Part shown: in pieces, positions 4,302-56,115 of the stretch
Layout: the number at the start of each line of letters is the position of its first letter
Numbering within the stretch: the stretch's first letter is position 1
Notes under the pieces: generated by a model
The model's input: the letters and a program-made list of their open reading frames with translations, nothing else
What the model was told of the DNA's origin: nothing
Databases searched by the model: none
Virus record (IMG/VR): IMGVR_UViG_3300030685_000003
Span: 6,156 to 70,155 of that record
Reading direction: 5' to 3' (one strand)
DNA length: 64,000 nucleotides
Source: a virus
Translations under genes and position numbers: made by a program

Positions 4302-5213
4302 CTATTTTTTTACCATCGAGTATGCTATACCCCAAGATAAACAAAAGCCTATAACTATAAGACTCATGTACGTCGGTATATGGAATCCAAAGATTCCTGA
4401 TATCATTTTTGCTCATATGAAGAACAAAATAATAATAACTGCATGACTAAGGTATTTAACTTGGTTACCTACTGCCTCCAATATAAAGTATAGAGATCTT
4501 AGACCAAGTATTGCAAATATATTGGAAGAGAATAGGATGAACTTATCTGACGTGATTGCTAATACAGCTGGTATAGAATCAAAAGCGAACATAACGTCTG
4601 CTATCTCAATAACTACCAAAGTCAAAAACAACGCAGTCATAAATAGTTTTCAGTTTTCTCTTACAAAGAATTTGTGTCAATCTAATTTTGGGTAAACAGG
4701 TAGTATTTTTTTTAGAAATGTAGCTATCTTCCCTTTAGAATAATCAACTTCGTCTTGTTCTCAACCATCTGACATTAGCTCTTTGAGCATTTTAATAGCA
4801 GACCAAATAACAATAAGACCGAAGATAACTAACACAACTGGTCAAAGTGACATTAGCCACGCCCCAGCAAAGATAAAACACATTCTTAATACGATTGCAC
4901 CTAGTATTCCTCGGTATAAAATTCTATGTCTATACCTTTGAGGTATAACGAATGATGAGAATATTGCCATCATAACGAATAGATTATCAACCGACAGTGA
5001 TTTCTCTAATAAGTAACCACTAAAGAAATTCATTGAAGCGTCCAGACCCATTGAAAAATATATATACACATTGAATCCTACAGCCAAAGCTATCCACATA
5101 CAGCTTTCTATAGCTGCTTGTTTCAAAGATATTGCTTTATCTTCCTTATGCCTTAGATGATCAAATGTCAACGACGCTGCAAGAACCACAAACATAACAA
5201 TGTAATGTCACAT
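4302..5213 (-). CDS. terC: TerC/Alx family membrane protein (303 aa)
   Basis: GYLLEKSLSVDNLFV, HRILY(W)GILGAIVLR, IEIADVMFAFDSIPAV, SNIFAILGLRSLYF. Confidence 0.93.
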
Positions 5214-5503
5214 TATCTTTTTGCCGACAATAAAAAGCTAATGTAAGACACTAAGATAACGGCACATATGATGAATGATAACATCCCGCTAAACATAAAG
5301 AATACCAATAATGGAGCCAATACTAAGAATGATCTAATAGCAGTATTATTGTTTTGATCCCATCTTACGATAAATCCATTGATTAAGTTAACCAAGAATC
5401 TAGTGAAAGGATTTCTCTTTGTGGCACCAAGCCATAGTTGGAATTTGTTTGCGTAAATTTGTCATAAATGTTTTTCAATAAATTTGAGTATAGTATTAAA
5501 CAT
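5213..5503 (-). CDS. small membrane protein (96 aa)
   Basis: Open with TGA=Gly; hydrophobic C-terminal helices; stop overlaps the terC start. Confidence 0.7.
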
Positions 5504-5531
5504 TCCTAAATAGGGGGTAAGAATAAAAGAA

Positions 5532-5554
5532 AAGGGTGGTGGTTAGCCACCCTA
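5532..5554 (-). terminator. intrinsic terminator after terD
   Basis: agggtgg..ccaccct hairpin followed by a T-rich tract on the minus strand. Confidence 0.65.
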
Positions 5555-5559
5555 ACCTA

Positions 5560-6087
5560 CTAAAGACTTTCAGCTACTTGTGAAATGTCTCCGTCAATGT
5601 AGTCTCCCATTGCTGTGAAAGCATAGTTGTCACCTGAGTCAACAACCTTACCTACTACTACAGCAGTATGAGCACCACCTTGAGCCAATACATAAGTTGC
5701 AAGAACTTCGTTTGTTTCTTGATTGTATACAGTTGCCTTAGCATTTGCAACATCAGAGAACTTAACGTTTCCTGTGTAAATATTTACACAGATGAAGTAC
5801 TCACCATCACCAGATTTAGTGGCGTCCATTTTAACGAATTCATCGTCTCCATCTCCTGCACCAGTTCTATTGTCTTCTGACAATTCGACCCCAGTAATAG
5901 CAGTTCTAGCATTGTAGTATGCTACTTTCTTTGCTCCATTTGCTTTTTCAACAATGAACAAATCAAGATCTGCAGTAATTCCTTCTTTAACGTCCCAAGA
6001 GAGACCTACTCTAATTTTTGAGATAGATGAACCATCTGCTTTTTTGAGGTCTAGAGTTTGACCTTTAACCAAGTTGAGTGCTTTCAT
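5560..6087 (-). CDS. terD: TerD family protein (175 aa)
   Basis: LNLVKGQ, VGLSWD, DLDLF, DNRTGAGDGDDE, F.AMG. Confidence 0.92.
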   Translation of the reverse strand: MKALNLVKGQTLDLKKADGSSISKIRVGLSWDVKEGITADLDLFIVEKANGAKKVAYYNARTAITGVELSEDNRTGAGDGDDEFVKMDATKSGDGEYFICVNIYTGNVKFSDVANAKATVYNQETNEVLATYVLAQGGAHTAVVVGKVVDSGDNYAFTAMGDYIDGDISQVAESL

Positions 6088-6118
6088 GTGTGTGTAGAAA
6101 AATAGGATAAAAAAGATT

Positions 6119-6191
6119 AGGTTGTGTATCGGATTCGAACCGACATCTTCCGCTTACTACGCGGATGTTTTTCCATTAAACTAATACATCC
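6119..6191 (-). tRNA. atypical tRNA-like gene, anticodon AGT (Thr-type), poorly paired acceptor stem
   Basis: D-arm tagtttaatggaaaaac, tccgc-gtAGTaa-gcgga, gtcggTTCGAATccgat; acceptor has mismatches. Confidence 0.6.
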
Positions 6192-6424
6192 ATATAGATA
6201 TACCCCTCACGTGGACTACTCACTAGTTTTCATCCACGCTACTCATATATTGTGACTTGATACATAATACCTATCGTCGCCCAAACTCCGCCACTTGTCC
6301 GCCTACATTGTTCGTACACTCCATCATATACCTCTACCCCTACCCTCCGGTGATCAAACCATACTCTCAGTTACCCATATATGACTTGCGGACACCCTGA
6401 AACCCGTTCTTTATAACGGGGATA

Positions 6425-10903: not shown

Positions 10904-12208
10904 TTATTCGTAATCTTTCATATCAAGATATGTGAAGTTATTTGTGTATGTTTGATACGCTCTCTTTCTGGCGTACCATTGATTCTCCGTCATTGAAGAA
11001 TTATCTACTATGTCGTATATATTTATCTCTTGTTTCCCTTCAAAAGATCTCATTGCTCTTCCCGATGCTTGTATAACATTAGCTGGCTCTCTACCTGAGA
11101 AACAGACTATAATTGTATCTACTGCTGGATTATCGAATCCTACTCAGAGGATTTGTCTTGTTGCTACCAATACTCTTTTTTCTTCAAATTGCAACATAAT
11201 TTCATTTCTTTTTTTTGTGGTAGTTGTGGCAACTATGAATGGGATATCAAGTTCTTTTCAAAATCTCTCGGAAGTCTCAGCTCTGTCAGTCATGATAAGT
11301 ATTTTTTTGTTTGCTGATAAAGACTTCTTTACTAGTCTTTTCACCACATCTATTTTTTCTGGGTTTGCTTCTAACATTGTCTTAAGATTATTCCAATCAG
11401 CATACTCATCGAATAGTGTCTTGAGTTTTATCTTAGTAACCCTTATGTCAAATTGAGAGATAAGAAACTCTCTATATTCATAAGCATCTACTATTCTTCC
11501 CCAAAATTTTAGGAAGTCACCATACTTAAATCAAGACATATCAGGAGTTCAAGTCATAGCATACTTATATTGACATTGGGTCTCTATGATCATATTTCTG
11601 TATGTGTTTTTGATGAGTAGATGTGCTTCATCGAATATAGTTATATCCCATTCCCCATTATATTTTTCTAAGAATTTTTTGTAGGAAGCATAAACAACAA
11701 CCGTTATGTCATTGAATTGTTTCTTCATTCCATAGTAGATACCTACTTGTCATGGGAATTTTTCTTCTAATGATGCTGATAGTTGTTGTGCATTCATAAT
11801 TGTATTTGTCAATATAACTGTCTTTCATTTAAGCTGCCCTATTATCCAAGCAGTTGTCACCGTCTTACCGTATCCAACATCGGCGTATAAAAGACCGTAT
11901 GGTTTCTGGATAAGTTCTTTCTGTGGTCTATCCTGATATCGTCTAAGTACTGTAGTATCGTGTATTGTAATAGGCTTATTTATTACTGACTCTACCTTTA
12001 TTCCGAAGTGTTCACAAGCAGAGATATTACACTTCCCATTCCTAACATTCCATAGTGGATAGAAATCTGGTTGCATATATCAGGCCTTCTCATTGATCCT
12101 AGTTAGCTTTTCTTTCTTGTAATTTTCTGTACGCAAAAAAGATTTAGGATTAGCGAAGGTATTTAGTTGTGTTATCTCTGCAAGAGTTATTGATCAGTTA
12201 TGGAGCAT
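10904..12208 (-). CDS. superfamily 2 (DEAH) helicase (434 aa)
   Basis: ADVGYGKT, IFDEAH, AMTGTP, GVGFD, QASGRAMR. Confidence 0.92.
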
Positions 12209-12270
12209 CGTAGACAACAGGAGGTAAAGGTTGATTAGAATAGATAGACGTGTGCTATCTAGCTATTCTA

Positions 12271-14678: not shown

Positions 14679-15072
14679 TCTTTTCCTTGGTTACCTTTAA
14701 ATATGAACTTGGTTGGATATCCAAAAATTCAAACGCTTCAGGAGATTCTTTTAAGAAATCCATATTGACTGTTTGTTTCACAACACCACCACCTAATTTC
14801 TCTACAAGTTGTGATAGTTCCACCCCCTCTTTTAGGACTGTCTTATTGACAGAGATTTTAGAAAGAGTATACCCATTCATAGATATAGGTGCTTCGATAT
14901 CATCTAAGATAGGTGCAATTATTTTTAGTTCATCTTCCATCTCTTTGATAGAATTTTTGAGTTCGATATATCTTGCAACTACTGCTGTCATATCTGGCTT
15001 TCAACTATTCCCTGAGTTGTTTCAGATGATTGATCCGTTGATGTTTGATCATTCGATGGTGATTGCGTTCAT
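14665..15072 (-). CDS. hypothetical protein (135 aa; start could instead be 14991)
   Basis: Supplied ORF extends to an upstream ATG preceded by a TTTTA leader. Confidence 0.6.
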
Positions 15073-15926
15073 TCTGGTAGCTGATTAGTTTGTAAAAGAT
15101 TAAGTGAAGCCAGTGCTTCATTATACATAACCCCCATAGCAACATGCTCTGGACTTTTGTCCGCTATTCTGAAACTTTCTTTAAGTTCTTTTAATACTCA
15201 AATGAGTTTCATCTTGTCGCCCACAACAGATGCTTTTGTTGCGTCTAATAAGATTGGATGAACCAACTCATTAAATTTTTCTTTTATTTGTTCAAGAACT
15301 GACTCAGAGGATTCTCCTGGAATAATCTCAACTCCTTCTTGTACAAAGTTACCTTCTCCTTCTTCTGGAATATAAGGCATTCAACCCAATTCACTTGGGA
15401 ATGCAGCACGGAATCCTTGTCCGATAGCAACCTTTTTAATCATGAACTCTGGCATGGTTGCCCAAGTCCCTTGATATGATCAGTCTGATTTCTTCTTAGC
15501 AAATTCTGTCATAGATACATCCCATTCAAAAGGGAGTTTCCAATCCTTTCTATGAATAGTTACTCTAGCTCACAGCAATTTGTTATCTTTGTCTATGATT
15601 GTATTTACAGTCCAACCATCTAGTTGCCCGCTTCTCATAGCTCTTTCGATATACGTTTGATATCCGGTAACTATTGTAAGTTCTGGCACCTTCTCCCGCT
15701 TACCATTAACATTGACACTCTTTTCATATGGGATAGCATAGATCTCCCTCTTGAATGGATTTAGATTGAATCCCTTGGCTATGTTTAAAAACATGATAAG
15801 TTGGTTGTCTGAGAGTTTTGTATTACTACCCAACAAGAAGTCTTTAATCATTTTGTCTGTTACTTGACCTACAACCAATTCTGATTGTGTGGTCTCTGCT
15901 AGAACTTCACTTGGCTTAGGCGTCAT
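14979..15926 (-). CDS. bet: phage recombination protein Bet/RecT (315 aa)
   Basis: LNPFKREIYAI, IVTGYQTY, SGQLDGW, HRKDW, TWATMPEFMIKKVAIGQGFRAAFP. Confidence 0.92.
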
Positions 15927-16577: not shown

Positions 16578-16601
16578 TAGTGCAAAATATAAATTAAAAA
16601 T

Positions 16602-16823
16602 TTAACAATCCGGAGTTCGTTCAATAGATCTGTACTGAGATATCCTATATAATCAATTAGGTATCTTATGAGCACGAGCATAAGCCCTTAGCTCTAACAA
16701 TTCTTTTTTCTTAGCTACTTCTGACGTCTCATTGCTTCGAGAACACAGCATCTCTAGAAAAGTATCCAGTATATACTGACGTTTTTCTCAAGCATCGTCA
16801 AAAATTGGTTGGTTTTTATTCAT
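16602..16823 (-). CDS. hypothetical protein (73 aa), first gene after the promoter at 16838-16865
   Basis: Open ATG..TAA with TGA=Gly. Confidence 0.55.
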
Positions 16824-16837
16824 CAGATTGTGGGCAT

Positions 16838-16865
16838 AATATAAACGATACGTACTTTTTTGCAA
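16838..16865 (-). promoter_or_regulatory. sigma70-like promoter for the recombination/replication operon
   Basis: TTGCAA-N16-TATATT; shares TTGCAAAAAAGTACGTAT with the promoter at 6425-6452. Confidence 0.7.
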
Positions 16866-16869
16866 GAGA

Positions 16870-17118
16870 TTATTTGTTTTTTTGTCTTGGCTTCTTAAAC
16901 TTACCATACTTTATTCTGAATACATATGTAGTTTTCATACTTAGGTTTGTTGTTTCTTTCCAGAAACAATATCTCATAACGTGATCGTCCATAAGAATAT
17001 CTTTTTCCACTTTGTTTGCGTCTTTCTCGTCAACCTCGAATGTACAATCATTATCGAATTTTCATCCTTCTGATCGCTTCTCATTCTTTTTAATCTTGAC
17101 TTTTAATAACGTAGCCAT
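16870..17118 (-). CDS. hypothetical protein (82 aa)
   Basis: Open ATG..TAA with TGA=Gly. Confidence 0.55.
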
Positions 17119-17145
17119 AATAAGTTTTTTGATAAAGAGATAAAA

Positions 17146-17358
17146 TTAGTTTACTGGTTCAAGGCTTTCTTCTAGAACTCGGAATTTACCGTTACTAGAA
17201 TCAAGAAGATATTCTACTGTAGTTCATCAAATTCTTATCCCTAATATGGGGCGAACGACTATGTATGTATCGTCAGCTCTTTTACATAGATCTCCTACAT
17301 TAAATTTAGTGATTACTTTTACTGTCTTTGTTGATGGTACTTTCTGTTTGAATTCCAT
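17146..17358 (-). CDS. hypothetical protein (70 aa)
   Basis: Open ATG..TAA; KFNVGDLCK motif typical of small SH3/KOW-like phage proteins. Confidence 0.55.
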
Positions 17359-17384
17359 TGGGATAGGGGGTATAAAATAAAGAA

Positions 17385-17624
17385 CTAATAATTTTCTTCG
17401 AGCCAGTCGAAATAAGCGTCAGCCATATCTCTTTTAACCTGAGGCCAGTCTATGCTATCATAGTAACTGTCTAGTTGTCAGCTATTTACTAGGTAAGCCC
17501 TAGCTGAGTTATCCTCTACATACTTCTCTAGATACATCGCTTGGTTCTCGTTCTCGAAATCCTCGGGAGACATATCCGGGCGAAATACAACTTTTTGTTT
17601 TCTCTTTGGTAGTGGTTCAGCCAT
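17385..17624 (-). CDS. hypothetical acidic protein (79 aa)
   Basis: Open ATG..TAG with TGA=Gly. Confidence 0.55.
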
Positions 17625-18445
17625 TAGTTCGGTTGGTTACTTGAACTAAAATATGGATTTCTACACAATCATAGGCAATACCCAGCTGAGTATTGTACTC
17701 TGTGAGGTATGAATAAGTCAGCCCTATCAGGATTAGCTAGGCATACCATATTGCTTACGATATATATTTTCCCTGGCTGTTCCTTAGGTAGTGTCGATGG
17801 TACCAATTGATTTTCATAGACAGGGATATCGTTTACATATCCTATCAACATCTCATTCTCCGAGATCCTGATACGCCCGTGTGCTGGGATGCTATAACCA
17901 CTAGCAAAGGAGACTACGTGTCAAGTTAGGTTAAATATCTGAGTTCACTCGTATGCTGGCACATCTTGGTTGATGTTGAAGAAATCTTCTTGTTGTTGCA
18001 CTGGTTCGAGCTCTTGAATTGGTTCAGGCTCTGTCATCTTTGCTAGTGTATTTGTTCTAGATTCTTGCATCTCTAGCTTAGTTCTTCTCTTGCGTTTTGG
18101 CTTTACTTCTCAAGATTGTTCTAGCTTAATCTTCTTTGGTCTTCATCTACCTCTCTTAATTGGCTGCTCTTCTTCCATATCTAATCAGACAATTACCTCT
18201 TTCTTTGGTCTCCCTCTTCATTTCTTGACGATTGGTTCAGTCACTTGTTCTGCGAACGGTTTACTGATTAGTTTGTTGTATTGAACTGGTACGAATGATG
18301 TTTCTCTAACTAGAATTGAGCCACCATTTTGTTCTATAACATAATAATCAACTCATTTCATAGTATGAGTATAGGATATTATTTTACTTACTGTCCCGTT
18401 ATTCATTTGGATGAGTAGCCCTGGGGCAAAATGCTTTTTTGTCAT
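17624..18445 (-). CDS. AT-hook-containing protein (273 aa)
   Basis: KKGRGRPKK and KRGRGRPKK (each needs TGA=Gly); C-terminal NLTGH..YIVS..DLFIP phage domain. Confidence 0.7.
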
Positions 18446-18481
18446 TACAAATTATAGTGGATAAAAATGCTGATAAAGAAT

Positions 18482-18700
18482 TTACTTTACTTCTTTTAGA
18501 ATATCTTGAAATGTTTTATTTGTTTCAAGTAGATATTCCGAAAGCAAGTGATTCAATCTATTGTGTATCCATACTAATTCCTTGTGATGGAAAGAAGAGT
18601 TCCCCCTATTTATATCAATCCATTTGAGTTTGTTTTTCGCCTCTGCTTTTAGTTTCATAAGTCCGATGACTATCTTGTCTGTTGCTTTCTTATTAGCCAT
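18482..18700 (-). CDS. hypothetical protein (72 aa)
   Basis: Supplied ORF on the coding strand of this region, ends in TAA. Confidence 0.6.
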   Translation of the reverse strand: MANKKATDKIVIGLMKLKAEAKNKLKWIDINRGNSSFHHKELVWIHNRLNHLLSEYLLETNKTFQDILKEVK

Positions 18701-19099
18701 ATGTAATATAATAGAAATAAAATTATCTTTTTTTTATGATACAAAATTCTCTATTGATCCCGAGTTCGTCTAGCTTTACCTGGATATAACTCGCGTCATA
18801 TGTAGTGAATAACAGATCGTCCTGAATCATTACAACCTTAGGACAATTCGGTTTGAGGTGTGCCTTATAGACGTATCGCATTATCGGCTACGGTATTGAG
18901 ATAAAAATTCTAATAATTTCGCTTTCATCCCCTCTTCATTTTTCTCGCTCTCTATAAAGATATAGTCTTCTTCCATTTCTAGTATAAGAGACTCAACTTC
19001 TGCGATATTATTTATTATTGCTCATTCCTTTTCTAATATACTTCTAACTTTGATATAGAAATCTGCTCTTCCTGGGTAATATACTCTTCCGAACATCTA

Positions 19100-19525
19100 T
19101 TAGTCTGTTATAGATAAAGACTTCGCCTCTTCTGCTAGTTCTTCTAATCTTTCAATCATTTCGTCATATCAATTTTCGTAAGTCACAAATTGATCTTCTA
19201 GAGTTATTGCATATTTTCTTCACTTCTCTGTGCCATATCTAGGGGTTCGTCTGTCTGTCCTGATTTCTATATCCGTTCTATCTTCACTACAAGCGACTAC
19301 TTCTGCGTATATTCATTTACCTTTGTAGAGATTTGTTATTAAAAATCCTATCTCTAAATCATTGGCGTTTTCTAGTCGCTCATCTTTTTGTTCGGTTGTG
19401 AGCTTTGCAAGTGTCCCGTCTTCGTCTATAGCTTCTTGGCGTCAATAACCTTGACAAGAACATTTATATTCATTCTCCTCTAATACTTTTTTACTATCTG
19501 TGCTTTCGTGGTAGTATTTTGCCAT
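19100..19525 (-). CDS. hypothetical protein (141 aa)
   Basis: Open ATG..TAA with TGA=Gly. Confidence 0.6.
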
Positions 19526-19526
19526 T

Positions 19527-19886
19527 CTATTCTTGTCAATCAAATAAAACATCGTCCGGCGTTCTGTCATCGTCCAGTGTTGCTGGCTTTTGTTCTGATG
19601 CATCCATTAGTTCTATGCTTTCTTCTACCACTCGGTATCTATTCTCTTCGTGATTATCCGGGTCATCCCCCGTATGGAAAGAAGTATTTTCTATATCAAA
19701 AATAATCTCTCGAGAATATACAATATCTTTATAATTATGAAAACTCGCGATAACCCCTGGTATTTTTTCTGGAAGATTATTCCAATATTCTTTTGTTATT
19801 ACTCGTACTTTTTGTCATTTCTTATATTTTTCCTCCTTCGTTTCCTGTTCTCTCGCGTCGGCTTCTGTTAGTTCTTGTATAGCCAT
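19527..19886 (-). CDS. hypothetical protein (119 aa)
   Basis: Open ATG..TAG; KYKKGQKV(W)VI. Confidence 0.6.
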
Positions 19887-19938
19887 CTTGGATTGTAATA
19901 AGAAAAGTAAAGACCGGCGCACCGGGTTGATAAAGGAC

Positions 19939-20328
19939 CTACTTGTACTCTTTTGCGTATCAATCGGCAATCATTGCTTCGTTGACGCTTTCGTTTTCTA
20001 ATAAGATCTCTCCCAATAGTCTGCCATAGTAGTCCTTATGGTTTTCAAGTTTTATATTTATCCTACCCGGACGGCTTAGGATTTGTCTTAGGTGGTCCTT
20101 TGCTTCTTGTCCACCGCTTTCGGCGTATCAATATCTTAATGTGTTGCTCTCGGGCGCGTCAATCCCTGTTAGTCTTAGGGATTGCTTTTTTCCTTGGTAT
20201 TCTACTTTGACTGTGTCCCCGTCGATAACGTACAAGAGTTTGGGGGCGTCTGTATGTAGAATAACAAAAGACGCTCCCCCAAAAAATAACAAAAGCACAA
20301 TAACTAATAGACTTTTTTCAGCGTTCAT
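19939..20328 (-). CDS. thermonuclease (SNase family) with N-terminal membrane anchor (129 aa)
   Basis: VIDGDT, LRLTGIDAPE, DYYGRLLG, NEAMIADGYA. Confidence 0.9.
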
Positions 20329-20335
20329 ACGTCGG

Positions 20336-20677
20336 CTATTTTACAAAATAAACTGTATAGTTTCCGTTTGTTTCAAAACATTTTACACCGTTTTTGTCTG
20401 CCGTTTTGATTTCGTCGTATAGAAATCTTAGCCCATTATCTGTCAAGAATTGGTTGAAATATATTCTTGTTGTGTTGCTGTAATCCCAGTCCTTGTAAAT
20501 ATAAATGATTTGTTTTACTTGGTCGATGTCGCAAATTTGCGAGCGGTAAGACTGAAACGTGATGACGTGTTTTTTTAGGTTTCACTTTTTGTCTGTTTCT
20601 TTTTGTTCGATTTCAATTTGATTGGCTACTGGCGCACCTGTTCTAGTGCTTCAAAGGTTTGTTGCTGTTATAGACAT
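20336..20677 (-). CDS. conserved phage early protein (113 aa)
   Basis: PVANQ..FQSYRSQI..DWDYSNTTR motif pattern. Confidence 0.65.
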
Positions 20678-20720
20678 TGTAGGGTTTTGGAAAAGGTTAA
20701 AAAGATTTTGATAAAGAAAA

Positions 20721-21044
20721 CTATTTGTACAGAATTCAAATTGCTGACGCTTCGTCGCGTTGTTCTCGCTTTAGGTCTAGGTTTTCTATAATTGATTTGA
20801 TATTCTCTGGATATTCACCATAAATATATTGACATCAATTTTTATAATCGTCTTTGCCTTGTATTGTAGTAAAGACAAAACGCCCGTTTTTATTTGGGTC
20901 TTCAAATTCTCATCGGGCACATCATCTACAGCAAGAGAAGGCTTATTTTGCAAAGGTGCGTTGCCTGTTTAGTATCTTGAAAACTCTGTTGATTTTCTTT
21001 TTGAAATCGTTTCTTTCTTCTGGTGTTAGTTTATATTTTGTCAT
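20721..21044 (-). CDS. hypothetical protein (107 aa)
   Basis: Open ATG..TAG with TGA=Gly. Confidence 0.55.
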
Positions 21045-21092
21045 CGTAGATTATAGATAGGGGATAAAAAAATTAGAAATATATTTGATTGA

Positions 21093-21458
21093 TTACTTGA
21101 ATTTCTGACGGGTGTCAATTAGCATTGCCTTAAATTCTGCTTCTATTCTTTTAAATTCCTGGAATTTCTTTACTATATCCTCTGGTGTTGTCTTGTTATT
21201 TCTCATAACCTGATAGAATGCGACTAATTTTACTTTCTTGTGTCCTGCTGCACTAGATAAAAAACTCGAGATCATACTATCAAACAGCCTTTTTATTCTA
21301 TCATCTATAGAATAGAGCACTTTTAAATCCTTGTCCGCCTGTTCTTCTGTTATCTTTGCATATTTGCTTAGCAAATCATTATCGACTAGGCAGTAGAATT
21401 CTACACTTCGTGTCCCATAGTGGGCTAGGTCGCTCAAGTTAATTATTTTGATTTTCAT
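21093..21458 (-). CDS. hypothetical protein (121 aa)
   Basis: Supplied ORF, ends in TAA. Confidence 0.65.
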   Translation of the reverse strand: MKIKIINLSDLAHYGTRSVEFYCLVDNDLLSKYAKITEEQADKDLKVLYSIDDRIKRLFDSMISSFLSSAAGHKKVKLVAFYQVMRNNKTTPEDIVKKFQEFKRIEAEFKAMLIDTRQKFK

Positions 21459-21744
21459 CGGATTGGCGAAAAGAAATAAAGCTTTCTATCAATATCGGAT
21501 AAGTAGAAAAGGTGTTGATTGGTCCAAAGTTTGACTGTCATTTGTTGGCGTCTGTGTTCTCCTTTGGGTAGAAAAAATCCATACAATACATATTTTTTAT
21601 TACGTCAATAGTATCTTTGCAAGGTTCTCAATTATATCCGCAGACAATCTCTATTTTTGTAGTGGGTTTTAGTCCGTGTTTGTCTAGAGTTTTGCTGTCG
21701 TGAAATAATGAAAAATTCTGTGCTTGGATTTTTCCTATAATCAT
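21439..21744 (-). CDS. hypothetical protein (101 aa)
   Basis: Open ATG..TAA with TGA=Gly. Confidence 0.5.
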
Positions 21745-21968
21745 TGGGAATTGGTAGTTGATAAATGTTTTTATTCTGTTGTCCCTGTGTTTGTATTCTC
21801 TTCTTGGATTTCCTCCAATATATTTTCTAGTTCTCTATTAGTTTTTTGGTAAAGTTCCGCCTTTAATACGTCAATATCGTATTGCGTCAAGGTGATTTGT
21901 TTTTGTGTTTCTCTGATTATTTCTTGGATGATGTAGATTTTAGGCATTGGTTCGGGTTGCTAGATAGT

Positions 21969-21992
21969 AAAAACGCCCGGAGTTCGGGCGTG
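21969..21992 (-). terminator. intrinsic terminator
   Basis: acgccc-g..c-gggcgt hairpin followed by TTTT on the minus strand. Confidence 0.65.
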
Positions 21993-22133
21993 TTGGTTTG
22001 ATAAAGAACTTCTTTTTAGATTGCGTTGAATTGTGCAAGCGTCCCAATAATTAGCACGGCAACCACTAGCGCCCGCAGTCGGGTATGTTTTATTGTGTCT
22101 GTGATTTCTTTTTTAGTTTCTTTTGTCATCCGT

Positions 22134-22607
22134 CTAGTAGTTCTCGAATAAAACGTTGATCGCTTCAAGTTCGGCGTGTGTGTATACTCTGCGCAATTTC
22201 TCGGCGTTGATTTTTAATTGGTTAAAAATATTCTGGCTTTCTCTCGCGTTTTCATATCAAAACTCCTCGATAAAATCGAAATAGTCGCCAGTATCTTGCG
22301 CCGTTCTGTAGTCCATAACTAAACAAGCGAGCGCGGCAGATTTTACCTTGTCGACTCTCTGTTCTGCTGTTTGGTTGCGTCGTTCTCTCAATTCTTTTTG
22401 ACTGAGCTTTGTTTGTCTGTTTCTATCAAATATGAATGTCCTTGCTCCCTGTTCTACTTCGTAGTCGTGTTGACTTCCGAAAAAATCAAAAGTTTCTTTT
22501 CAAATCTTAATTTGATATTGGAAACGCTTTGCGCCTCGCTTCTCTGTTTCGTGCTTGGCTGTGATTTCAATTTTGTCTGTGTGGCTTTTTACGGTGTCGT
22601 TTTGCAT
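22134..22607 (-). CDS. conserved phage early protein (157 aa)
   Basis: Open ATG..TAG; LACLVMD..FDFIEEFGYE motif. Confidence 0.65.
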
Positions 22608-22625
22608 CGTGATTTTGGCTATAAA

Positions 22626-22742
22626 GTAAAAATAAAAAGCGTCAGCCTCTCCCCGTTTTTGATAAAGAAAAACAAGCTAGCCCGCTTCACTGGGATTTGT
22701 TTAACCTCATCAAAAAAACAAGCTGACGCTTTTTATTTTTAC
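22626..22742. repeat. 21-bp perfect inverted repeat enclosing an extended hairpin
   Basis: gtaaaaataaaaagcgtcagc (22626-22646) / gctgacgctttttatttttac (22722-22742). Confidence 0.85.
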
Positions 22743-23029
22743 TGTATATGTGATGATATTATTGTAGATATTATTATATAGAATATAATAAATCTCGGAC
22801 ATCGTAGGGGCTGGCGCTTGACTTTAGGGTCTACCGTCGAGGCGGGGGCGTCTATCTTTTCTCTTGCTCTGTCCTGTGTGTAAAAGAACGCTTGACGGGT
22901 TCGGGTTGCCCGTGCTTTGTTTGTTGTTGCTTTGCTTGGTTGTGTAGTGATTGTTTCTGGTGTTGGGTTTTCTTATGCGGTTTATACTCCGCAAACTAAA
23001 TCATTGTTTAGTCCCAATCTGTTGAAACA

Positions 23030-23057
23030 ATTATATATAGAATGTGTTTTTTTGCAA
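23030..23057 (-). promoter_or_regulatory. sigma70-like early promoter
   Basis: TTGCAA-N16-TATAAT. Confidence 0.75.
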
Positions 23058-23591
23058 GTCTTTGCGTGTATTTTGTGCAATACTTTGGTTATCAATGGGA
23101 CTTGTACCTCTTTCTAGATTATGCTTTATTTTGTGGATAGCTGTAGAACTGACGCCGTAGGCTTTCCCTATCTCTCTTATAGTCATTCATATTGATAGGT
23201 CTTCTCTTATTTTTTCTAGTGTTTGGCTGTCAATCTTTTTTGCTTTCCTGTTTTTATTCGTTGCGTCTGTTTGGTTGTCTTGTGGTGTTCCTATAAATAG
23301 ATTATCTTTGTTGTTGTTGTTTGGGTTGTCGTCTTTGTGGCAGATGATAAAGAGTTTATTTTTAATATCATATCCAAGAAACGCTTGAGCCACTAACCTA
23401 TGGGCTAGATATTTTCTTTCCCTGCTGTCATCCTTGAGAGAATAAACAATATAATGTTTCCCGTCTTTGTTGGTCTTGCCTTTCCCTCCCTTAAGATTTT
23501 TATATTGTCAATTCTTAAATAATCTTTTACAGTTTCCCAAGTTGCTGATTTGATATAGTGGGTATGCTTCAATTGTTTTTCGTTCTTCCAT
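23031..23591 (-). CDS. NUMOD4-HNH homing endonuclease (186 aa)
   Basis: MEE(W)KTIEAYPLYQISNLGN, AHRLVAQAF, CHKDDNPNNNNKDNLFIGTPQDN, C-terminal HTH-like segment. Confidence 0.92.
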
Positions 23592-23664
23592 AGTGTGGAT
23601 ATTTCAAATATAAATAGATGTTTAGTGTTTTATTGATTGCCTTGTTGTTTACTTGTATATTTAA

Positions 23665-23692
23665 AGTATAATCAATTTTTATTAAAAAGCAA
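23665..23692 (-). promoter_or_regulatory. sigma70-like promoter upstream of the HNH gene
   Basis: TTGCTT-N16-TATACT. Confidence 0.6.
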
Positions 23693-23776
23693 ATCTTTTT
23701 TCGCGAAATTAAGACTATTATCATATAGCAAGTAAGCAGGTAAGAAGCGGGCTTGCTCTTGATATATTAAAGACAG

Positions 23777-24503
23777 CTTGACATTGTGCGTTTTGATAAA
23801 GAAACCGTACTACATAGTAGTATAGTATATGAATTATATATAGTATATATTTTATTTTTTATTTTATTATATACGATGTATATTTTGTGATGTAAATAAA
23901 TATAGATCAAATATATATACTATATGTATCTCATATACTATACTACTATGTAGTATACTTTGTTTATAATACGCAGTAAATGTCAAGTGTTGTGTGTAGT
24001 GTGGTGATGATGTCAAGTGTTGTGTGTAGTATAGTATAGATGTCAAGGATACACTGGCTGTATATTCTCTCAGATCGTAGAGACTACCTGCTTTCTAAGG
24101 CAACCCTCCTGCCTGCCTGCTCTCTCTTCTCTACGTACACTATCCTCTGATACGCCAGATCCGACCTAAGCAAATGGGAGGGGGTAAGCCCCCAGAGGGC
24201 AGGGATATATATACTATCTCCTCCCGAACATTTTTCCAAAAAAAAGAGATTTTAGGTATACAAAAAATGTATATAGTATACAAAAAATGTATATAAATCT
24301 CTTGCAAAAAGATATGAACTGTATACACTGGTTGTATACAAGAGGTCCAAGCCCCCCCCTAACTCCAGGCACTAACTACAATTCCAAAGACATATACACT
24401 GAGTGTATACATCAACTCCATAAGTATACAAAAAATGTATACATATACACTGGTTGTATATCCACTCATCAATAAACATCTTTTTATATACAAAAAATGT
24501 ATA
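23777..24503. repeat. repeat-rich divergent intergenic region (candidate origin or packaging/terminal region)
   Basis: 24-bp inverted repeat 23808-23831/23932-23955 around an AT-rich core; atgtcaagtgttgtgtgtagt x2 at 30-bp period; tatacaaaaaatgtata x4; tatacactggttgtata x2. Confidence 0.8.
24302..24329 (+). promoter_or_regulatory. sigma70-like promoter starting the rightward arm
   Basis: TTGCAA-N16-TACACT. Confidence 0.6.
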
Positions 24504-24505
24504 CC

Positions 24506-24865
24506 ATGCCAAACAATAAAGATCTTAGAAATATTCTTATAGACGAAGCTGTGCCTGTGTGATCTAAGATTATGTTTAAGTGAGAGAAGAGATACTATAC
24601 AGTTATGGCGAGTAACGCGTTTGTCTCTGTATGTACTAAACCATATCCACAGAATGATACTGTTCGATATACGATTATAGACTGGACTGCTAAAATAAGA
24701 GGTCCTGAAGATCTTATATTTGGACTTGGTGCAGAAAATAGAGTGGAATGTGAAGATATGTTGCAAAGAGTTACTAGTGGTGAGTCTTATATATCTGAGA
24801 GACATTGTGTTCCATTAGATATAGAGAAATCTAAATTAGTGCGAAAACTTAAAAATTTTTTATAA
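24506..24865 (+). CDS. conserved phage hypothetical protein (119 aa)
   Basis: Extended via TGA; CTKPY..YTIIDW..RGPEDLIFG. Confidence 0.7.
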
Positions 24866-24880
24866 ATAATTGTGTACATT

Positions 24881-25360
24881 ATGAACGCGAAGGAATTTAG
24901 AGACAAGTTGGAAGCGGATGGATTTATGAATTTCCAGGAATATGCGCCGCAACCGAAAGTGAATATAAGAAGTTTGCCTCAGAATATTTATAAGATCGTG
25001 AAGAAGCTGGAGTCTACAGGGCTGTATGAATTTGATGGCTACTTTTTTATAAAAAAGTGAACAGATAACCACCTGAAACAAACAGAGACGAAAACAATAA
25101 TAATTCCCAGCCAGGACCATGATGATTGTCATCAACAACCAAATAGTGTATTACAAGAAAACAATAGGATCCTGATGCAAATAAATGGCGAATTAGAATT
25201 GGACATAGCAGCTCTCAAAAAATATAAAGAGGATACAAAAAACATTAAGTCCGAGTTAGATGACGCATTGTTTTGGAAGGCGGATACGGAGAAGAAGTAT
25301 CAAGCTTCCTTAAACATAATCCAGATCCAGGAGGAACGCATCAAGGAACTGGAATGATAG
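24881..25360 (+). CDS. hypothetical coiled-coil protein (159 aa)
   Basis: Two supplied ORFs join in frame through TGA. Confidence 0.65.
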
Positions 25361-25528
25361 ATCCCCTAAACAATTTTTACTTTATACCCCCATATACCCA
25401 TGCCTAAAAGTTGAAGAAAATTAAGAGGTCAAAGAATCAGATGAAAAATTATTAAAGAATGAGGCACAAAGAAACTCATGGAGTATCTTAAAGCAAATAA
25501 TAAATAATTTTACCTATAACCCCTACCC

Positions 25529-25936
25529 ATGGCCGAAAAAGATACCAAGCCACAAATTCTTAGCCAGGAAGCGATAAACACACTTATTGCTACCGATGCT
25601 TTCAAAGAAAAAGCTATACAAAGTATTATCTTAACTAATAGCCTGTATGATAATATTCTCCAACTTGATGCCAAGTGATTGGTGTTCAAATATAATGCGC
25701 ACTCTATGGACTATAATTTTTATATAGCCTTCAAACTTAATGGGAATCTAATGGAATCCAATGGTAAAATTGACGTAGCTTTCATAAATTGAATGAGGGA
25801 TAAATATAATATTTGATCTGCACTAAAAGATATCATGTGTGATTCAATTGCCCTGGCAATATCTAACGAGCTATTCAAAACGAATAATGATTCCATAAAC
25901 ATATTTGCTAAACAGGCGATGAAAAATATTTTTTAA
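25529..25936 (+). CDS. hypothetical protein (135 aa)
   Basis: Open ATG..TAA with TGA=Gly; TTTTA/C-rich leader. Confidence 0.6.
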
Positions 25937-25954
25937 TTTATACTCCATGTATCC

Positions 25955-26152
25955 ATGAACTTCACTCATAAAAGATTGACTGATGCCCCAGAAGAACAAC
26001 AAGTAATACCACAAACAATCCCCGATATGATCGCTTACCGAGAAGAAGCACTAACTCATTATGATAAATCATCTACCACAGCATTTCGTATCAAGGAGAG
26101 GATAGTACAATTAAAACATCTACAAGATAGTGTCCAGAAATTCAACAGCTAA
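25955..26152 (+). CDS. hypothetical protein (65 aa)
   Basis: Supplied ORF, ends in TAA. Confidence 0.55.
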   Translation: MNFTHKRLTDAPEEQQVIPQTIPDMIAYREEALTHYDKSSTTAFRIKERIVQLKHLQDSVQKFNS

Positions 26153-26226
26153 ATCATAATCCCCTTGTATTTATAATCAAAAAAGATACAATACTGTCGT
26201 CTTTTAGATTATAAAAACACTTACAG

Positions 26227-26568
26227 ATGGTAAAAACTACAGCAAAAAAGTTCAAACCAACACACAAACCAAGAGTGCCAACTAATAAATATTTGGAAGA
26301 AGGGTGGAGAAAATTAGATCTCGATCTTAAAGATTCCACAGAAAATATCTTCAAAGTTCCAGCTAAGCAGTGGAAGAAACGATGAGTGCTTGGTAGAAAA
26401 ATGTTCAATGATATGTTCCAAATAGTGGAGAAGAATGCCAGTCTATTCCAGCATCCAGATTTCCCAGAAAAACTGGTGTCTAAAAAAATATGGAACACCA
26501 CAGCATTTAATGTAGCCTGGATGTCAGCAGATATTGTTGAATCAAATATCAAAGAGCTTATATGATAA
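26227..26568 (+). CDS. conserved phage hypothetical protein (113 aa)
   Basis: VPAKQWKK(W)G..RKMFN..FQHP..WNTTAFNVAWM. Confidence 0.65.
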
Positions 26569-26583
26569 TCCGGAATAATTCTC

Positions 26584-26611
26584 TTGCAAATAAATACATA
26601 TTGATTACAAT
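26584..26611 (+). promoter_or_regulatory. sigma70-like promoter
   Basis: TTGCAA-N16-TACAAT. Confidence 0.7.
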
Positions 26612-26651
26612 ACCAAAATTAAGTATATATATTTATATTATAGAGTGTTTC

Positions 26652-27167: not shown

Positions 27168-27170
27168 CCT

Positions 27171-32499: not shown

Positions 32500-34137
32500 A
32501 TGGGTAAAGAAATCACGTTTTGAGAAAATTGAAGGAAAAAAATCCTTAATGGAATAAAAAAAGTATATGATGTGGTAAGAATTACTATGTGACCTAAGGG
32601 GAAAAACGTATTATTGCAGAGAAATAACGTACCATTGATCACAAATGATGGTATAAGTGTGGCAAAACTTATAGAATTGAATGATAATGCTGAGAAAATG
32701 GGTCTAAGATTCATCCAAGAAGCCGCTTGAAAGACCAATTTAGATGCCTGAGATGGTACTACATTGACTACTGTACTGTCTTATGCCATGGCAAATGAAG
32801 GTATGAAGTATGTAAATAACGGAATCAATCCATTTACGCTATCGGAGCAGCTTTTAAACACCCAAAAATTTGTATTAGAGGGACTAAAATGAATGACTTT
32901 GCCAGTTACTTCGAAGAAGTTGATCCAAGAAGTTGCTACAATCTCTGCTCAGAGCGAGGAAATCGGTAAAGTTATCGCCGATACTATAGATAAAGTAGGT
33001 GAAAACGGGGTTATTACCGTAGAAGAAGGTAAAAATCTGGGTATAACTACTGAAATTACTATAGGATATAAGTTCAATCAGGGGTATACATCACCATATT
33101 TCGTTACAGATCCTAATAAAATGGAGTGTATTATAGAGAATGCATACATCTTAATTACCGATAAGACCATATCTAACCCGAAAGATATAGAAAAAGCACT
33201 CAATGATATTACCATGACAGGTTCTAAAGATATAGTCATTATTGCTGAGGATGTTATAGGTGATGCATTGACTATGATTGTAAGGGCAAAGAACCATAGA
33301 GGCACACCAATAAATATCGTAGTTGTTAAGGCTCCAAGTTACGGAGACGTTAAGAAAGAAATGCTATGTGACATTGCTGCCATCACTGGTGGTAAAGTCT
33401 TCTCAGATGATTTTTGAATAAGTTTCGACCAATCATCTTTGGACTATATGTGACGTTGTGATAAATTTATTTGTACCAAACAATCAAGTATCATAGTTTG
33501 AGGTAAATGATCAAAAAAAGATATAGATTCTAGAATAGCTTCTGTAAAAGCGTTGCTCAAAAACAAGGATGATGATTTTGATAGATTCGATCTTGATAGA
33601 AGAGTTGCTGCTCTTGCCGGATGAGTTGCTGTTATCAGAGTTGGAGCTGGTACTGAAATGGAAATGCAGAATAAAAGACTTAAGGTCGAGGATGCGTTGA
33701 ATGCCACTAAGGCAGCTATCCAAGAAGGTATTGTTGCATGAGGATGAACGACTCTTGTAAATCTAAGCGAGTATATACTTAGTCAGTGATTCACATACGT
33801 TTCTGAAGAAGAAAAAATTGCCGACAAAATTATCGCAGATGCATTACTCTATCCGATCAAACAAATCTGTTTGAATGCTGGATATAGTGGTGATGTGGCA
33901 GTAGATAAAATAATAAAGCATAAATCCAATAGCTATGGATTCAACGCAAAGACTGGTGAGTACTGAGATATGCTTAGGATGTGAATCATAGACCCGGCTA
34001 AAGTTTTGAGATGTGCTATCGAAAATGCTGTGTCTGCCGCTATGATGCTCCTTACACTTGATGCTATCGTTGTTGATGAAAAAATTAAGGACCAATACTC
34101 AGTCCAAACAGGATTTGATTTATCTGACGCTATGTAA
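32500..34137 (+). CDS. groEL: chaperonin GroEL (545 aa)
   Basis: [79 protein letters not shown]. Confidence 0.97.
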
Positions 34138-39610: not shown

Positions 39611-40981
39611 ATGGCAAATTTAAATCTTAGATCGGCCGCTACCGAGCTTAATAACAAAACTATCAATATCTTCAAATATGGATGGGGATATGCTGGTAAA
39701 ACAATGGCAATGTTTATGTACAATCTTATTGACCTAAACGCTGAAACCATTGATTGGAAAAACATTAAACCAAAGCCATTCAAAGTAGAAATGAAAGAAA
39801 ATCTTTTAACAGATCAAAATCTTGGAAACAAGGCAACTTGGCAAGAAATCAATGTTAAAGATCAAGTATTGGTAATTAACTCAGTATGTACTACAGCTAA
39901 AACAATCGTTGTTGCTGCAACTGGTCCAGTTAACTACAAAAGAGGTCAATGGTTCTTCAATCCACAAAAACAAGAATCATACCAAATCAATACAGATGTT
40001 TCTGATACAACAATTGGAGCAACTACAGTTACTCTTACTTGTGTAGATATCGGATCAGCTGCTGCAAACGCTAACCTTAGAATTGCTGGTTACTCTAAAC
40101 CTTACAAAAACAATGAGGGTAATGCATTCGTTGCAGATCAAGTACAAGAAATGTACAACATCTTCACTGGATTCAATATGGCGATCAATCTTGATCAAAA
40201 TGAAATGAATCAAAACTCAATCTTCAAAGAAGATACTAAGGCATATATTTCACAAAAGACTGCTGAAGCATCAAGAACAATGCTTATCAACTCTTGGAGA
40301 CAATACTATACTGGTGAAAGAGGTGCTAACTCTATAGGAGGTACAACTACTCCAACTCTTGGAGGTTTGAACTACTTCTTGAAGAATGTATCAAACATTG
40401 CTGCTATAAATGTTGGAACTGGAGCAAGTGGTGCAGTAGGTGGTGAAATCGTAGTAAATGGTTCAACTTATGATGAAAAGAGACAATCTTTCCTTTCTGC
40501 TTTGAACTCTATCTTGATCTCTCCATTGCCAAATATCAAAGGAGCTAACAAACTTATCTTCCTTTGTACAACTTCTTTCATGAGAGAAATTGAAGAAATG
40601 TTCTTCCCTAAATTAACTAACTTCGACAAGATCAGAGTTATGGATTTGGAAGTAGAAACTATCAAATTTGCTAATGCAACTGTTTCATTCATCGTTGATG
40701 AAAGTCTTGATGATTTGAACTTCACTAAGACATCTGCTGGAGTATACGGAATGCAAAAGATTGGTTACATAATCCCTATTGATTACTGTAAAACAGTCAT
40801 GAAAGCAAACGATGTTTATACTAAGGATGGACAATCAGTTCAAGCTCTTGGTATGGGTAAATTCTTCATCTTGCCACAAACAGCTGAAGAAAGTCTTGAC
40901 TTTAGATTGTACTCAAACGCATCTGCGATGTGGGGAGCAATCAGTTCAGGGGCATACAGAAAGATTACATTCGGATGGTAA
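39611..40981 (+). CDS. major capsid protein (456 aa)
   Basis: Position after the scaffold, strongly biased codons, YNIFTGF..YTGERG..TLGGLNYF pattern, strong terminator downstream. Confidence 0.82.
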   Translation: MANLNLRSAATELNNKTINIFKYGWGYAGKTMAMFMYNLIDLNAETIDWKNIKPKPFKVEMKENLLTDQNLGNKATWQEINVKDQVLVINSVCTTAKTIVVAATGPVNYKRGQWFFNPQKQESYQINTDVSDTTIGATTVTLTCVDIGSAAANANLRIAGYSKPYKNNEGNAFVADQVQEMYNIFTGFNMAINLDQNEMNQNSIFKEDTKAYISQKTAEASRTMLINSWRQYYTGERGANSIGGTTTPTLGGLNYFLKNVSNIAAINVGTGASGAVGGEIVVNGSTYDEKRQSFLSALNSILISPLPNIKGANKLIFLCTTSFMREIEEMFFPKLTNFDKIRVMDLEVETIKFANATVSFIVDESLDDLNFTKTSAGVYGMQKIGYIIPIDYCKTVMKANDVYTKDGQSVQALGMGKFFILPQTAEESLDFRLYSNASAMWGAISSGAYRKITFGW

Positions 40982-55026: not shown

Positions 55027-55255
55027 GGGTTTTGACGATGACAGGTTGGTAGAAATAATTATAGATATAGTAGAACATGCTGAGAAAGAGACAAAGATGG
55101 GTGAAATGGTTCCTGACTATAAAACCCGTCTCTCTGCTTGGGATAGGATGGCTGAGATGAGAGGTCTTGTTTCTAAAAGAACAGATCCCTTAGCGGCTGG
55201 ACAATGAGGTGTCAATCTTGCTTTTTTACTTCAATCTCCTAAACAATGATCTTAG
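54803..55255 (+). CDS. putative terminase small subunit-like protein (150 aa), overlapping the giant gene
   Basis: LLEDKGFDDDRL..VPDYKTRLSAWD..MRG; only ATG in frame before this segment is 54803, with a TTTA leader. Confidence 0.55.
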
Positions 55256-55620
55256 ACTTTGACTTATGAGGAAAACATTTCAAGAATGAGGCTGAATTTA
55301 CATCCCGATTCTGAAAACAAATAAAAGATGCTGGTGGGTTTTGGTATAAAATACCAGATGATAGTATGGGATCTAAACCATATGATGCGATCGCCTGTTT
55401 GAATTGAGTGTCATATCATATAGAATTGAAGGCTGGTCATGAGAAAGGTAAAACTGATGTATTTACAAAACTCCGTCCAGTCCAAAAATATTCTCTACGT
55501 AGAGTTGCTGAGAACTGAGGTACGGCTATAGTAGTATTCTATAGTATAGAAAACAATTCCTACTTTGCTGTCCCTTTCTTGGCTGATACACAAAAAATAG
55601 AAATATCATTGAAAAACTAG
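55246..55620 (+). CDS. Holliday junction resolvase (RecU/VRR-NUC-like, 124 aa)
   Basis: NEAEF, YKIPD, KPYD, IELK, LRPVQ, GG.AIVV. Confidence 0.8.
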
Positions 55621-55636
55621 TGACAAACATTATAAT
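55609..55636 (+). promoter_or_regulatory. sigma70-like promoter before dps
   Basis: TTGAAA-N16-TATAAT. Confidence 0.7.
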
Positions 55637-55671
55637 ACCACTATGAATTTTACATAATAAGTACTTCTCCC

Positions 55672-56115
55672 ATGGTTGAATATCTTAACAAACTTCTTGC
55701 TAACTTCGTAGTTATGCAATATAAAGTGCATTCTATCCATACAGATATAGTAGGAACTCTATTTTGGGATGTTCATCTTTTGCTAAATGAGGTATATAAA
55801 TTTTTTGGGGATGATAATATTGATGTAATTAAAGAGAGAGTTAGAGTTCTTAAAAATTTCACAACCTCTAATCTATGCGATTTGATAGATCTATCTGAGA
55901 TAGAAGAAATATCAAAAGTACCTAGTATGGTGAGATCTCTAGAGGTTGTATTCGCTGATCTGGAAACTATTGAGAAATGTCTTAATGAAGGTAAAGATCT
56001 ATGTACAGAGAATAAAGATTTGGATACACAACAAATCCTAATTGATTTTAGTCTTGCTGTGGGTACTTTAAGACGAAAGGTAGAATCTATTCTTGCAAAA
56101 TCGACATTAGTTTAG
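55672..56115 (+). CDS. dps: Dps/ferritin-like protein (147 aa)
   Basis: LNKLLAN..YKVHSIH..GTLFWDVHLLLNEVY..IDVIKERVR..LR(W)KV. Confidence 0.82.
   Translation: MVEYLNKLLANFVVMQYKVHSIHTDIVGTLFWDVHLLLNEVYKFFGDDNIDVIKERVRVLKNFTTSNLCDLIDLSEIEEISKVPSMVRSLEVVFADLETIEKCLNEGKDLCTENKDLDTQQILIDFSLAVGTLRRKVESILAKSTLV

Follow-up and report, generated by a model that had tools for sequence, protein, structure and literature searches.

A phage genome with in-frame TGA in which CGA also appears to encode tryptophan

The viral record IMGVR_UViG_3300030685_000003 is a phage sequence of 70,155 bases, of which bases 6156-70155 were analysed here (the window, 64,000 nucleotides; positions below are those of the window). 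In every informative alignment the codon CGA behaves in this phage as a Trp or aromatic codon and never as Arg. We consider it very probable that the phage uses CGA for Trp on top of TGA for Gly, with CGG probably read as Trp too, and that both codons would be read by a tRNA of the host. The reading of CGA as Trp is supported by homologue columns at the phage's own codons, by CGA and CGG codons opposite TGG in related phages, and by hidden Markov model (HMM) score gains that are accompanied by a negative control. The identity of the host, its tRNA and the amino acid actually inserted are what we infer from these sequences.

Codons were counted in 102 open reading frames (ORFs; 21,150 codons), taken as the longest ORFs on the locally coding strand, a set that surely includes some spurious small ORFs and N-terminal extensions. 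In frame they contain 506 TGA, 191 TGG, 61 CGA and 14 CGG codons, the last two corresponding to 28.8 and 6.6 per 10,000 codons. The other codons of the six-codon Arg set are AGA (525 of 786), AGG (92), CGT (65) and CGC (29). An annotation under NCBI table 25 or table 4 would thus mistranslate as Arg up to 75 of 266 Trp positions (28%; 61 CGA and 14 CGG beside 191 TGG). The code itself was published as a prediction for the host clade in 2021, and the present case would be that code in a phage.

Homologue columns at CGA codons

All CGA, CGG and TGA codons were masked as X before every homologue alignment, so that the alignments cannot favour either reading. For the glycosyltransferase resembling TOD1/MUCI70 (DUF616), an exhaustive HMMER search returned 4763 proteins at E<=0.001, and the best 150 of these, minus the window's own protein, gave 163 aligned stretches. 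Columns of TerC were counted in the 119 nearest non-self homologues (120 listed with its own), and those of the GT2 glycosyltransferase in five homologues. A score similar to that of Codetta was obtained by adding up, over the seven CGA columns, the log-odds of the residue frequencies, to which a small pseudocount was applied.

The top residue is aromatic in all seven CGA columns (W in five, with R equal to it at 2:2 in one of these, and Y in two), compared with 0 of 31 columns of the Arg codons CGT, AGA and AGG (Fisher p=8e-8). Dominance by Arg or Lys, the pattern on which the preliminary description of this sequence had proposed to judge its claim that CGA encodes Trp, is seen in 0 of 7 columns. 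The summed scores for CGA are +22.0 bits for W, +7.1 for Y, -0.4 for R and -3.2 for F. In the same four alignments AGA decodes as R (+69.0 bits, 25 columns) and TGG as W (+97.3 bits, 20 columns), and AAA, TAT and TTT decode as K, Y and F. The 13 TGA columns score +23.6 bits for G and +9.8 for W, the latter being inflated because some homologues were called under table 4. The earlier claim of a Trp reading of CGA added to a Gly reading of UGA is thus borne out.

Individual columns are given in Table 1. In the DUF616-like gene, the column of amino acid 204 is led by an aromatic residue other than W. Controls in the same gene behave as expected of their codons: the AGA at amino acid 133 faces R in 155 of 161 aligned stretches and the CGT at amino acid 70 in 110 of 156, in line with the earlier remark that conserved arginines use other codons, and four TGG columns hold W 121, 130, 78 and 122 times. 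In the GT2 gene, the R residues opposite amino acid 165 come from an 86%-identical relative and from a distant homologue (28% identical), and the same 86%-identical relative has W opposite amino acid 237. A further CGA lies near the beginning of the longest GT2 ORF. As all five homologues begin at Met10, nine codons inside the ORF (29549-29575), the gene likelier starts there, and this CGA is probably noncoding.

The coordinates and sequence contexts cited in the preliminary description were all correct, and most of its examples fall where it had placed them, at a conserved Trp. This holds for the two DUF616 sites I[CGA]MDGS and Q[CGA]WDE and, as described below, for the NUMOD4 and Dps sites. 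The TerC site HRILY[CGA]GILG is positioned correctly, but its column is one of Tyr and Phe and not of Trp. Of the two sites ascribed to GT2, KKD[CGA]NFIGPIP does belong to that gene, but KQWKK[CGA]G lies in another ORF.

CGA opposite TGG in related phages

A metagenome scan provided the DNA of relatives at four loci (L002-L005), with 4184 aligned codon pairs. Locus L002 is 8.6 kb long, and its proteins are 50-89% identical to those of the window phage across terminase, portal, capsid and neighbouring genes. The relatives' eight CGA codons stand opposite TGG six times and opposite TTC and TAT once each, and their single aligned CGG (in L002) stands opposite TGG. None of the nine is opposite Arg or Lys. 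Genuine Arg codons of the relatives align as such: CGT is opposite R in 5 of 5 cases, AGA opposite R in 81 and K in 17 of 113, and AGG opposite R in 14 and K in one of 15. TGG is opposite W in 35 of 37 cases, and TGA is opposite G in 43 and opposite TGA in 32 of 99. Between CGA/CGG and the Arg codons the contrast is 9/9 to 0/136 (p=2e-14). CGA and TGG differ at two bases, and that one replaces the other repeatedly at conserved Trp sites is the outcome expected if the two codons are synonymous.

The same observation bears on the idea that the DNA was misassembled or the RNA edited, the translated codon being other than CGA. We found no point in its support. The two-base exchange recurs in independent assemblies of the relatives, and contigs of four other public runs over 16600-32300 show no differing letters, gaps or joints and no variants at CGA, although these contigs are short, low in depth and patchy (39/41, 37/41, 26/32 and 23/24 at >=99% likeness). 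We regard this explanation as negligible.

Filed proteins of the lineage carry traces of translation under other codes. The window's major capsid protein, encoded without TGA, CGA or CGG, has 14 homologues in a large protein collection (42-96% identity). In the seven columns where the window phage has W, 17 of 88 cells of these homologues hold R, and no W occurs in five invariant R columns. Several of them have W where Gly is invariant, as expected when TGA has been translated with table 4. Among the listed TerC homologues (its own excluded), ten have W at Gly columns and six have R at Trp columns. Public proteins of the lineage (P0008-P0014, P0018-P0034, P0135-P0138) were called under table 4 or 25, and in homologues called in this way W stands at invariant Gly columns and R at invariant Trp columns. 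Such miscalled homologues will weaken any profile built from them.

CGA as Trp or Arg in profile scores and solved structures

We also scored paired translations that differ solely in CGA being R or W. With W, Pfam scores rise for NUMOD4 (20.6 to 27.3 bits, +6.7), TOD1_MUCI70 (20.7 to 28.2, +7.5), TerC (157.7 to 162.1, +4.4), Ferritin (31.0 to 33.4, +2.4, the match then reaching residue 143) and Amidase_2 (34.9 to 37.3, +2.4). They fall slightly for ResIII (49.0 to 48.1, -0.9) and AAA_33 (74.5 to 73.5, -1.0), and stay level for GT2 (68.1 to 68.0), whose CGA codons lie outside the matched domain. In the PHROG database, 32 CGA-bearing ORFs were scanned as W and the eight with a family were also scored as R. 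From R to W their top families change by +1.3, +1.9, -2.1, +2.3, +0.2, -2.3, +4.1 and -0.2 bits (sum +5.2). The CGA columns tested there are weakly conserved and second families sometimes point in the opposite direction (phrog_1493 +4.4, phrog_62 -2.2); the amidase, for instance, gives mixed changes (phrog_822 -2.1, phrog_1493 +4.4, phrog_7698 -1.0). The largest loss of any profile with CGA as W is 2.3 bits.

As a negative control, the true Arg codon CGT was read as W at 14 codons in seven proteins. The top PHROG scores then change by -6.3, -5.1, -5.8, +0.6, -0.8, -4.4 and -1.2 bits (sum -23.0). Six of the seven proteins score lower, and in the remaining one (+0.6) the codon lies outside the match. 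These results weigh on the possibility that CGA is ordinary Arg, as in table 25, with the Trp-like positions due to coincidence or alignment artefact. A minority of R (4 to 20 cells) in some columns and the many CGA codons outside the tests would agree with it. Against it stand the gain for CGA and the loss for CGT when read as W, the masking of CGA in all alignments, and the two contrasts with Arg codons, in the homologue columns (7/7 against 0/31) and in the relatives (9/9 against 0/136). We therefore hold it to be extremely improbable.

Solved structures agree with the Trp reading at two sites. In the Dps/ferritin-like protein the masked CGA is opposite W of khiWmfkafl in the four chains whose alignment reaches the site, and in the NUMOD4 gene it is opposite W of WKDIKGYE in chain 1u3e_M, an HNH homing endonuclease. 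The CGA of the polynucleotide kinase gene, in a poorly conserved stretch, faces a Y of the T4 kinase and an M of Pnkp1, and TerC had no match among solved structures. Could CGA then stand for another aromatic residue, Tyr or Phe? The Tyr of the T4 kinase, the two of seven columns that are Tyr/Phe columns and the two of nine relatives' codons opposite TTC or TAT would fit. The summed log-odds nevertheless place W (+22.0) well ahead of Y (+7.1) and F (-3.2), seven of the nine relatives' codons face TGG, and the published tRNA evidence, according to PMC8629427, is of Trp identity. This makes Tyr or Phe a very unlikely assignment.

Several observations do weigh against Trp as the meaning of every CGA. 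At least 40 of the 61 CGA codons have no testable column, mostly in small genes free of homologues. Two of the seven columns (TerC amino acid 101 and DUF616 amino acid 204) are dominated by Tyr, R makes up 20 of 107 cells at DUF616 amino acid 229, and W and R are equally frequent (2:2) in one GT2 column. The R minority in these DUF616 and GT2 columns may be in part misread CGA or CGG of recoded relatives, whose DNA was compared at only four loci. PHROG scores that drop with W are those of phrog_822 (-2.1), phrog_93 (-2.3), phrog_62 (-2.2) and phrog_8238 (-1.1). A few CGA codons stand in basic, Arg-like contexts, for example in 20668-20838 and 62624-62893. For CGG, the evidence within the window favours neither W nor R: among five CGG-bearing ORFs only RecT has a family match, and its change is about 0 bits.

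These points raise the alternative that CGA is ambiguous or read by context, mostly as Trp but as Arg or a mixture in some genes (e.g. recently acquired ones), either by two competing tRNAs or in genes not yet adapted. The Arg-like contexts and the few PHROG scores that prefer R by about 2 bits agree with it, and PMC8629427 states that ambiguous translation is not excludable without experiment. On the other side, R or K leads none of the seven columns, the relatives' nine CGA and CGG codons never face Arg or Lys, and the Dps gene, which is free of TGA, still has CGA at a Trp position. We judge such ambiguity to be unlikely and prefer Trp as the meaning of CGA.

For CGG, the preliminary description had called the RecT/Bet-like context NGK[CGG]EK compatible with Trp without being decisive, which describes it well. 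The four best PHROG scores change by 0 to -0.1 bits with W, and phrog_561 by +3.8.

Table 1 Features of the window bearing on the reading of CGA and CGG.
Feature	Gene or region	Position	Strand	Context, homologue column or score
tRNA(UCA), TGA reader		774-846	-	ARAGORN; Rfam tRNA 53.4 bits
tRNA-Trp(CCA)		851-923	-	ARAGORN; Rfam tRNA 51.1 bits; TGG reader only
CGA, amino acid 82	amidase, 3052-3906	3661-3663	-	Pfam and PHROG scores (see text)
CGA, amino acid 101	TerC, 4302-5213	4911-4913	-	HRILY[CGA]GILG; Y 86, F 33 of 119, no R, no W
CGA, amino acid 93	SF2 helicase, 10904-12217	11939-11941	-	phrog_16 +4.1, phrog_62 -2.2, ResIII -0.9 (uninformative)
CGG, amino acid 77	RecT/Bet-like, 14979-15926	15696-15698	-	NGK[CGG]EK
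CGA, amino acid 4	HNH/NUMOD4 endonuclease, 23031-23591	23580-23582	-	MEE[CGA]KTI
CGA	113-amino-acid ORF, 26227-26568	26380-26382	+	KQWKK[CGA]G; ORF with no PHROG match
CGA, six codons into longest ORF	GT2, 29549-30319	29564-29566	+	upstream of likely start
CGA, amino acid 165	GT2	30041-30043	+	KKD[CGA]NFIGPIP; W, W, W, R, R
CGA, amino acid 237	GT2	30257-30259	+	W, W, R, R in the four homologues covering the site
CGA, amino acid 99	DUF616/TOD1-MUCI70-like glycosyltransferase, 31001-31735	31295-31297	+	I[CGA]MDGS; W 98, Y 37, F 10, R 4, H 3 of 161
CGA, amino acid 195	DUF616-like	31583-31585	+	Q[CGA]WDE; W 128, R 9, L 6, A 6 of 161
CGA, amino acid 204	DUF616-like	31610-31612	+	Y 65, K 17, I 12, R 9, H 8 of 161
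CGA, amino acid 229	DUF616-like	31685-31687	+	W 32, R 20, Y 20, F 9, L 5 of 107
Structural (late) module		32196-59754	+	nearly without CGA and CGG
CGA, amino acid 135	Dps/ferritin-like, 55672-56115	56074-56076	+	LR[CGA]KV

tRNAs of the phage

ARAGORN found nine tRNAs in the 70,155-base contig, and Rfam the same nine: Ser GCU, Tyr GUA, Gly UCC, Ala UGC, Asn GUU, UCA, Trp CCA, Gln UUG and Thr AGU. Neither program found an anticodon UCG or CCG among them. The preliminary description was therefore right that the window holds no tRNA with a UCG anticodon; the other 6155 bases of the contig, where it had suggested looking for one, contain no tRNA in the Rfam scan.

The phage thus has readers for TGG and for TGA and none for CGA or CGG, from which it follows that a host tRNA must read the latter two. 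In the decoding we propose, the phage would supply tRNA-Trp(CCA) and tRNA(UCA), and CGA and CGG would be decoded by a host tRNA(UCG) and/or tRNA(CCG) that accepts tryptophan, which is the arrangement predicted for the Absconditabacteria (SR1). The acceptor stem of the phage tRNA(UCA) consists of G1-C72, U2-A71 and C3-G70 with discriminator U. The rule for Gly identity of tRNA(UCA) given in PMC8629427 is G1:C72, C2:G71, G3:C70 and U73, and the phage tRNA departs from it because of U2-A71 and C3-G70.

Uneven use of CGA and CGG across gene classes

CGA and CGG are not spread evenly over the genome. In the structural module they number 4 against 61 TGG, and in the other ORFs 71 against 130 (p=1e-6). 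When the count is confined to ORFs of at least 100 amino acids, the figures are 4 against 60 in the module and 42 against 101 elsewhere (p=1e-4), so that CGA and CGG make up about 6% (4/64) of Trp codons in the module and about 29% (42/143) outside it. The same late genes of the relative at L002 have 9 CGA or CGG codons against 31 TGG.

The likelier cause of this avoidance in late genes is the ordinary codon bias of highly expressed genes. A supply of tRNAs by the phage was considered as the cause and rejected, for the codons that phage tRNAs read are not in general commoner there: the late genes' shares of Ser (AGY) and Gly (GGA/GGG) codons are lower, and their TGA share is 0.34 against 0.37. 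It is also conceivable, if rather doubtful, that the phage allots the reassigned codon to genes according to their class, either tying the translation of early genes and the host range to the clade that reads CGA as Trp or using the codon as a device of expression class or timing. This idea was drawn from the uneven use together with the phage's own tRNAs for TGG and TGA and none for CGA.

None of the 33 Gly codons of the major capsid gene (39611-40981) is TGA, and the gene also lacks CGA and CGG. Elsewhere in the phage TGA makes up about a third of Gly codons, and the capsid genes of some relatives use TGA and CGA.

Published codes and the probable host

Absconditabacteria were predicted with Codetta to use CGA and CGG for Trp as well as UGA for Gly (Shulgina and Eddy, eLife 2021, PMC8629427), as the preliminary description had said. 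According to that study, these bacteria depend for the two codons on tRNA(UCG) and tRNA(CCG), its search turned up tRNAs that fit the reassignment, and translation in vivo can be established by experiment alone. It gives AGA as dominant, the G+C content as low, and CGA as below 37 per 10,000 codons in all species and CGG as below 7 in all but one. A 2026 paper takes the CGA reading of the Absconditabacterales as given (PMC13092985).

The phage resembles this published code in both changes, in its low G+C content, in the dominance of AGA and in the rarity of CGA and CGG, which lie within the published ranges; the evidence is also of the same kind, namely profile columns and conserved positions. 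It differs in being a phage genome without a decoding tRNA(UCG) or tRNA(CCG), and in that CGG is not decided within the window. The code published for the Absconditabacteria is itself a computational prediction without experimental proof. The phage would lend it independent support at the level of sequence, and its CGA sites in conserved motifs offer a target for metaproteomic confirmation.

As regards the NCBI tables, table 25 (SR1 and Gracilibacteria) holds here for TGA as Gly (13 columns, +23.6 bits) but keeps CGA and CGG as Arg, which for CGA does not agree with our columns. Table 4, with TGA as Trp, was rejected, the TGA columns being Gly columns; W at Gly columns is confined to database homologues called with TGA as Trp.

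Two kinds of phages invite comparison. For two phages (assembly accessions GCA_902730795.1, GCA_902730815.1), PMC8629427 predicted AGG as Met like in their Bacilli hosts. These likewise follow a sense-codon change of the host with no tRNA of their own and presumably use the host's, but codon, amino acid and host phylum are others, and here the change is added to the reassignment of a stop codon. Phages using code 25 were predicted to infect Absconditabacteria and Gracilibacteria (mBio 2023, PMC10746230). According to that paper they have dense in-frame TGA and share the table-25 code of the host, as the present phage does; genes were predicted there under tables 11 and 25 only, and its main text contains neither 'arginine' nor 'CGA'. 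A search of the main texts of papers turned up none in which a phage is described as reading CGA or CGG as Trp. The present genome would indicate that a phage can share with its host a new meaning of a sense codon, and not only of a stop codon, even if it lacks the tRNA.

The code is also a strong hint to the host of an otherwise unplaceable phage. Absconditabacteria (SR1) are plausible as the host on indirect grounds, namely the matching code, the codon frequencies within the published range and the TerC homologues. The earlier narrowing of the host to the clade that reads CGA as Trp is thus matched by code and codon frequencies, with the identity of the host itself staying at the level of inference. 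Among the 120 TerC homologues listed, P0017 (56% identical) has a taxon; with the sources of ten more of the nearest looked up, two have one, a metagenome-assembled genome of Absconditabacterales (P0017) and one of Peribacteria (a member of the P0019 cluster). When genome contigs were scanned with the TerC alignment, none of the 80 loci listed was, by title, from Absconditabacteria or another candidate-phyla lineage.

Genome and other observations

A repeat of 124 bases at the ends of the record indicates a complete, circularly assembled phage genome. Its G+C content is 0.33-0.39. Genes lie on the minus strand until about 24.8 kb of the window and again beyond 62.6 kb, and on the plus strand between. 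Recognisable products are a TROVE-like RNA-binding protein, GroEL, large terminase, portal, RecT, TerC, an HNH/NUMOD4 endonuclease, GT2, the TOD1/MUCI70 (DUF616)-like glycosyltransferase, a Dps/ferritin-like protein, an SF2 helicase, a polynucleotide kinase and an amidase.

Further relatives were sought in IMG/VR and INPHARED. In IMG/VR the capsid protein alone gave no pattern match, and the capsid alignment gave 116 pattern matches of which none was confirmed. A scan of IMG/VR with the GT2 alignment gave 80 loci, the best 33-37% identical, which were rejected as relatives. A tblastn search of INPHARED with the capsid protein gave no match. Of the words sampled from 28555-32238, at least 97% are present in six public peat-metagenome runs, and 15 further runs contain parts of the stretch; no RNA run is listed among them. 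The six may include the source sample and so lend no independent support.

The GroEL gene (32500-34137; phrog_5725, 468.8 bits) contains 16 in-frame TGA codons and lies directly upstream of the terminase. The gene of the TROVE/Ro-like RNA-binding protein (phrog_850, 435 bits) adjoins a non-coding stretch in the region 1100-3040. When 1-6400 was scanned with Rfam at relaxed thresholds, the only additional matches were two overlapping ones in this stretch: one to the Y RNA-like YrlA family at 2616-2686, which at 30.9 bits stays below the gathering score of 69, and a tRNA-like one at 2654-2780 (24.5 bits). The TROVE gene and the YrlA-like stretch together look like a phage Ro/Y-RNA module.

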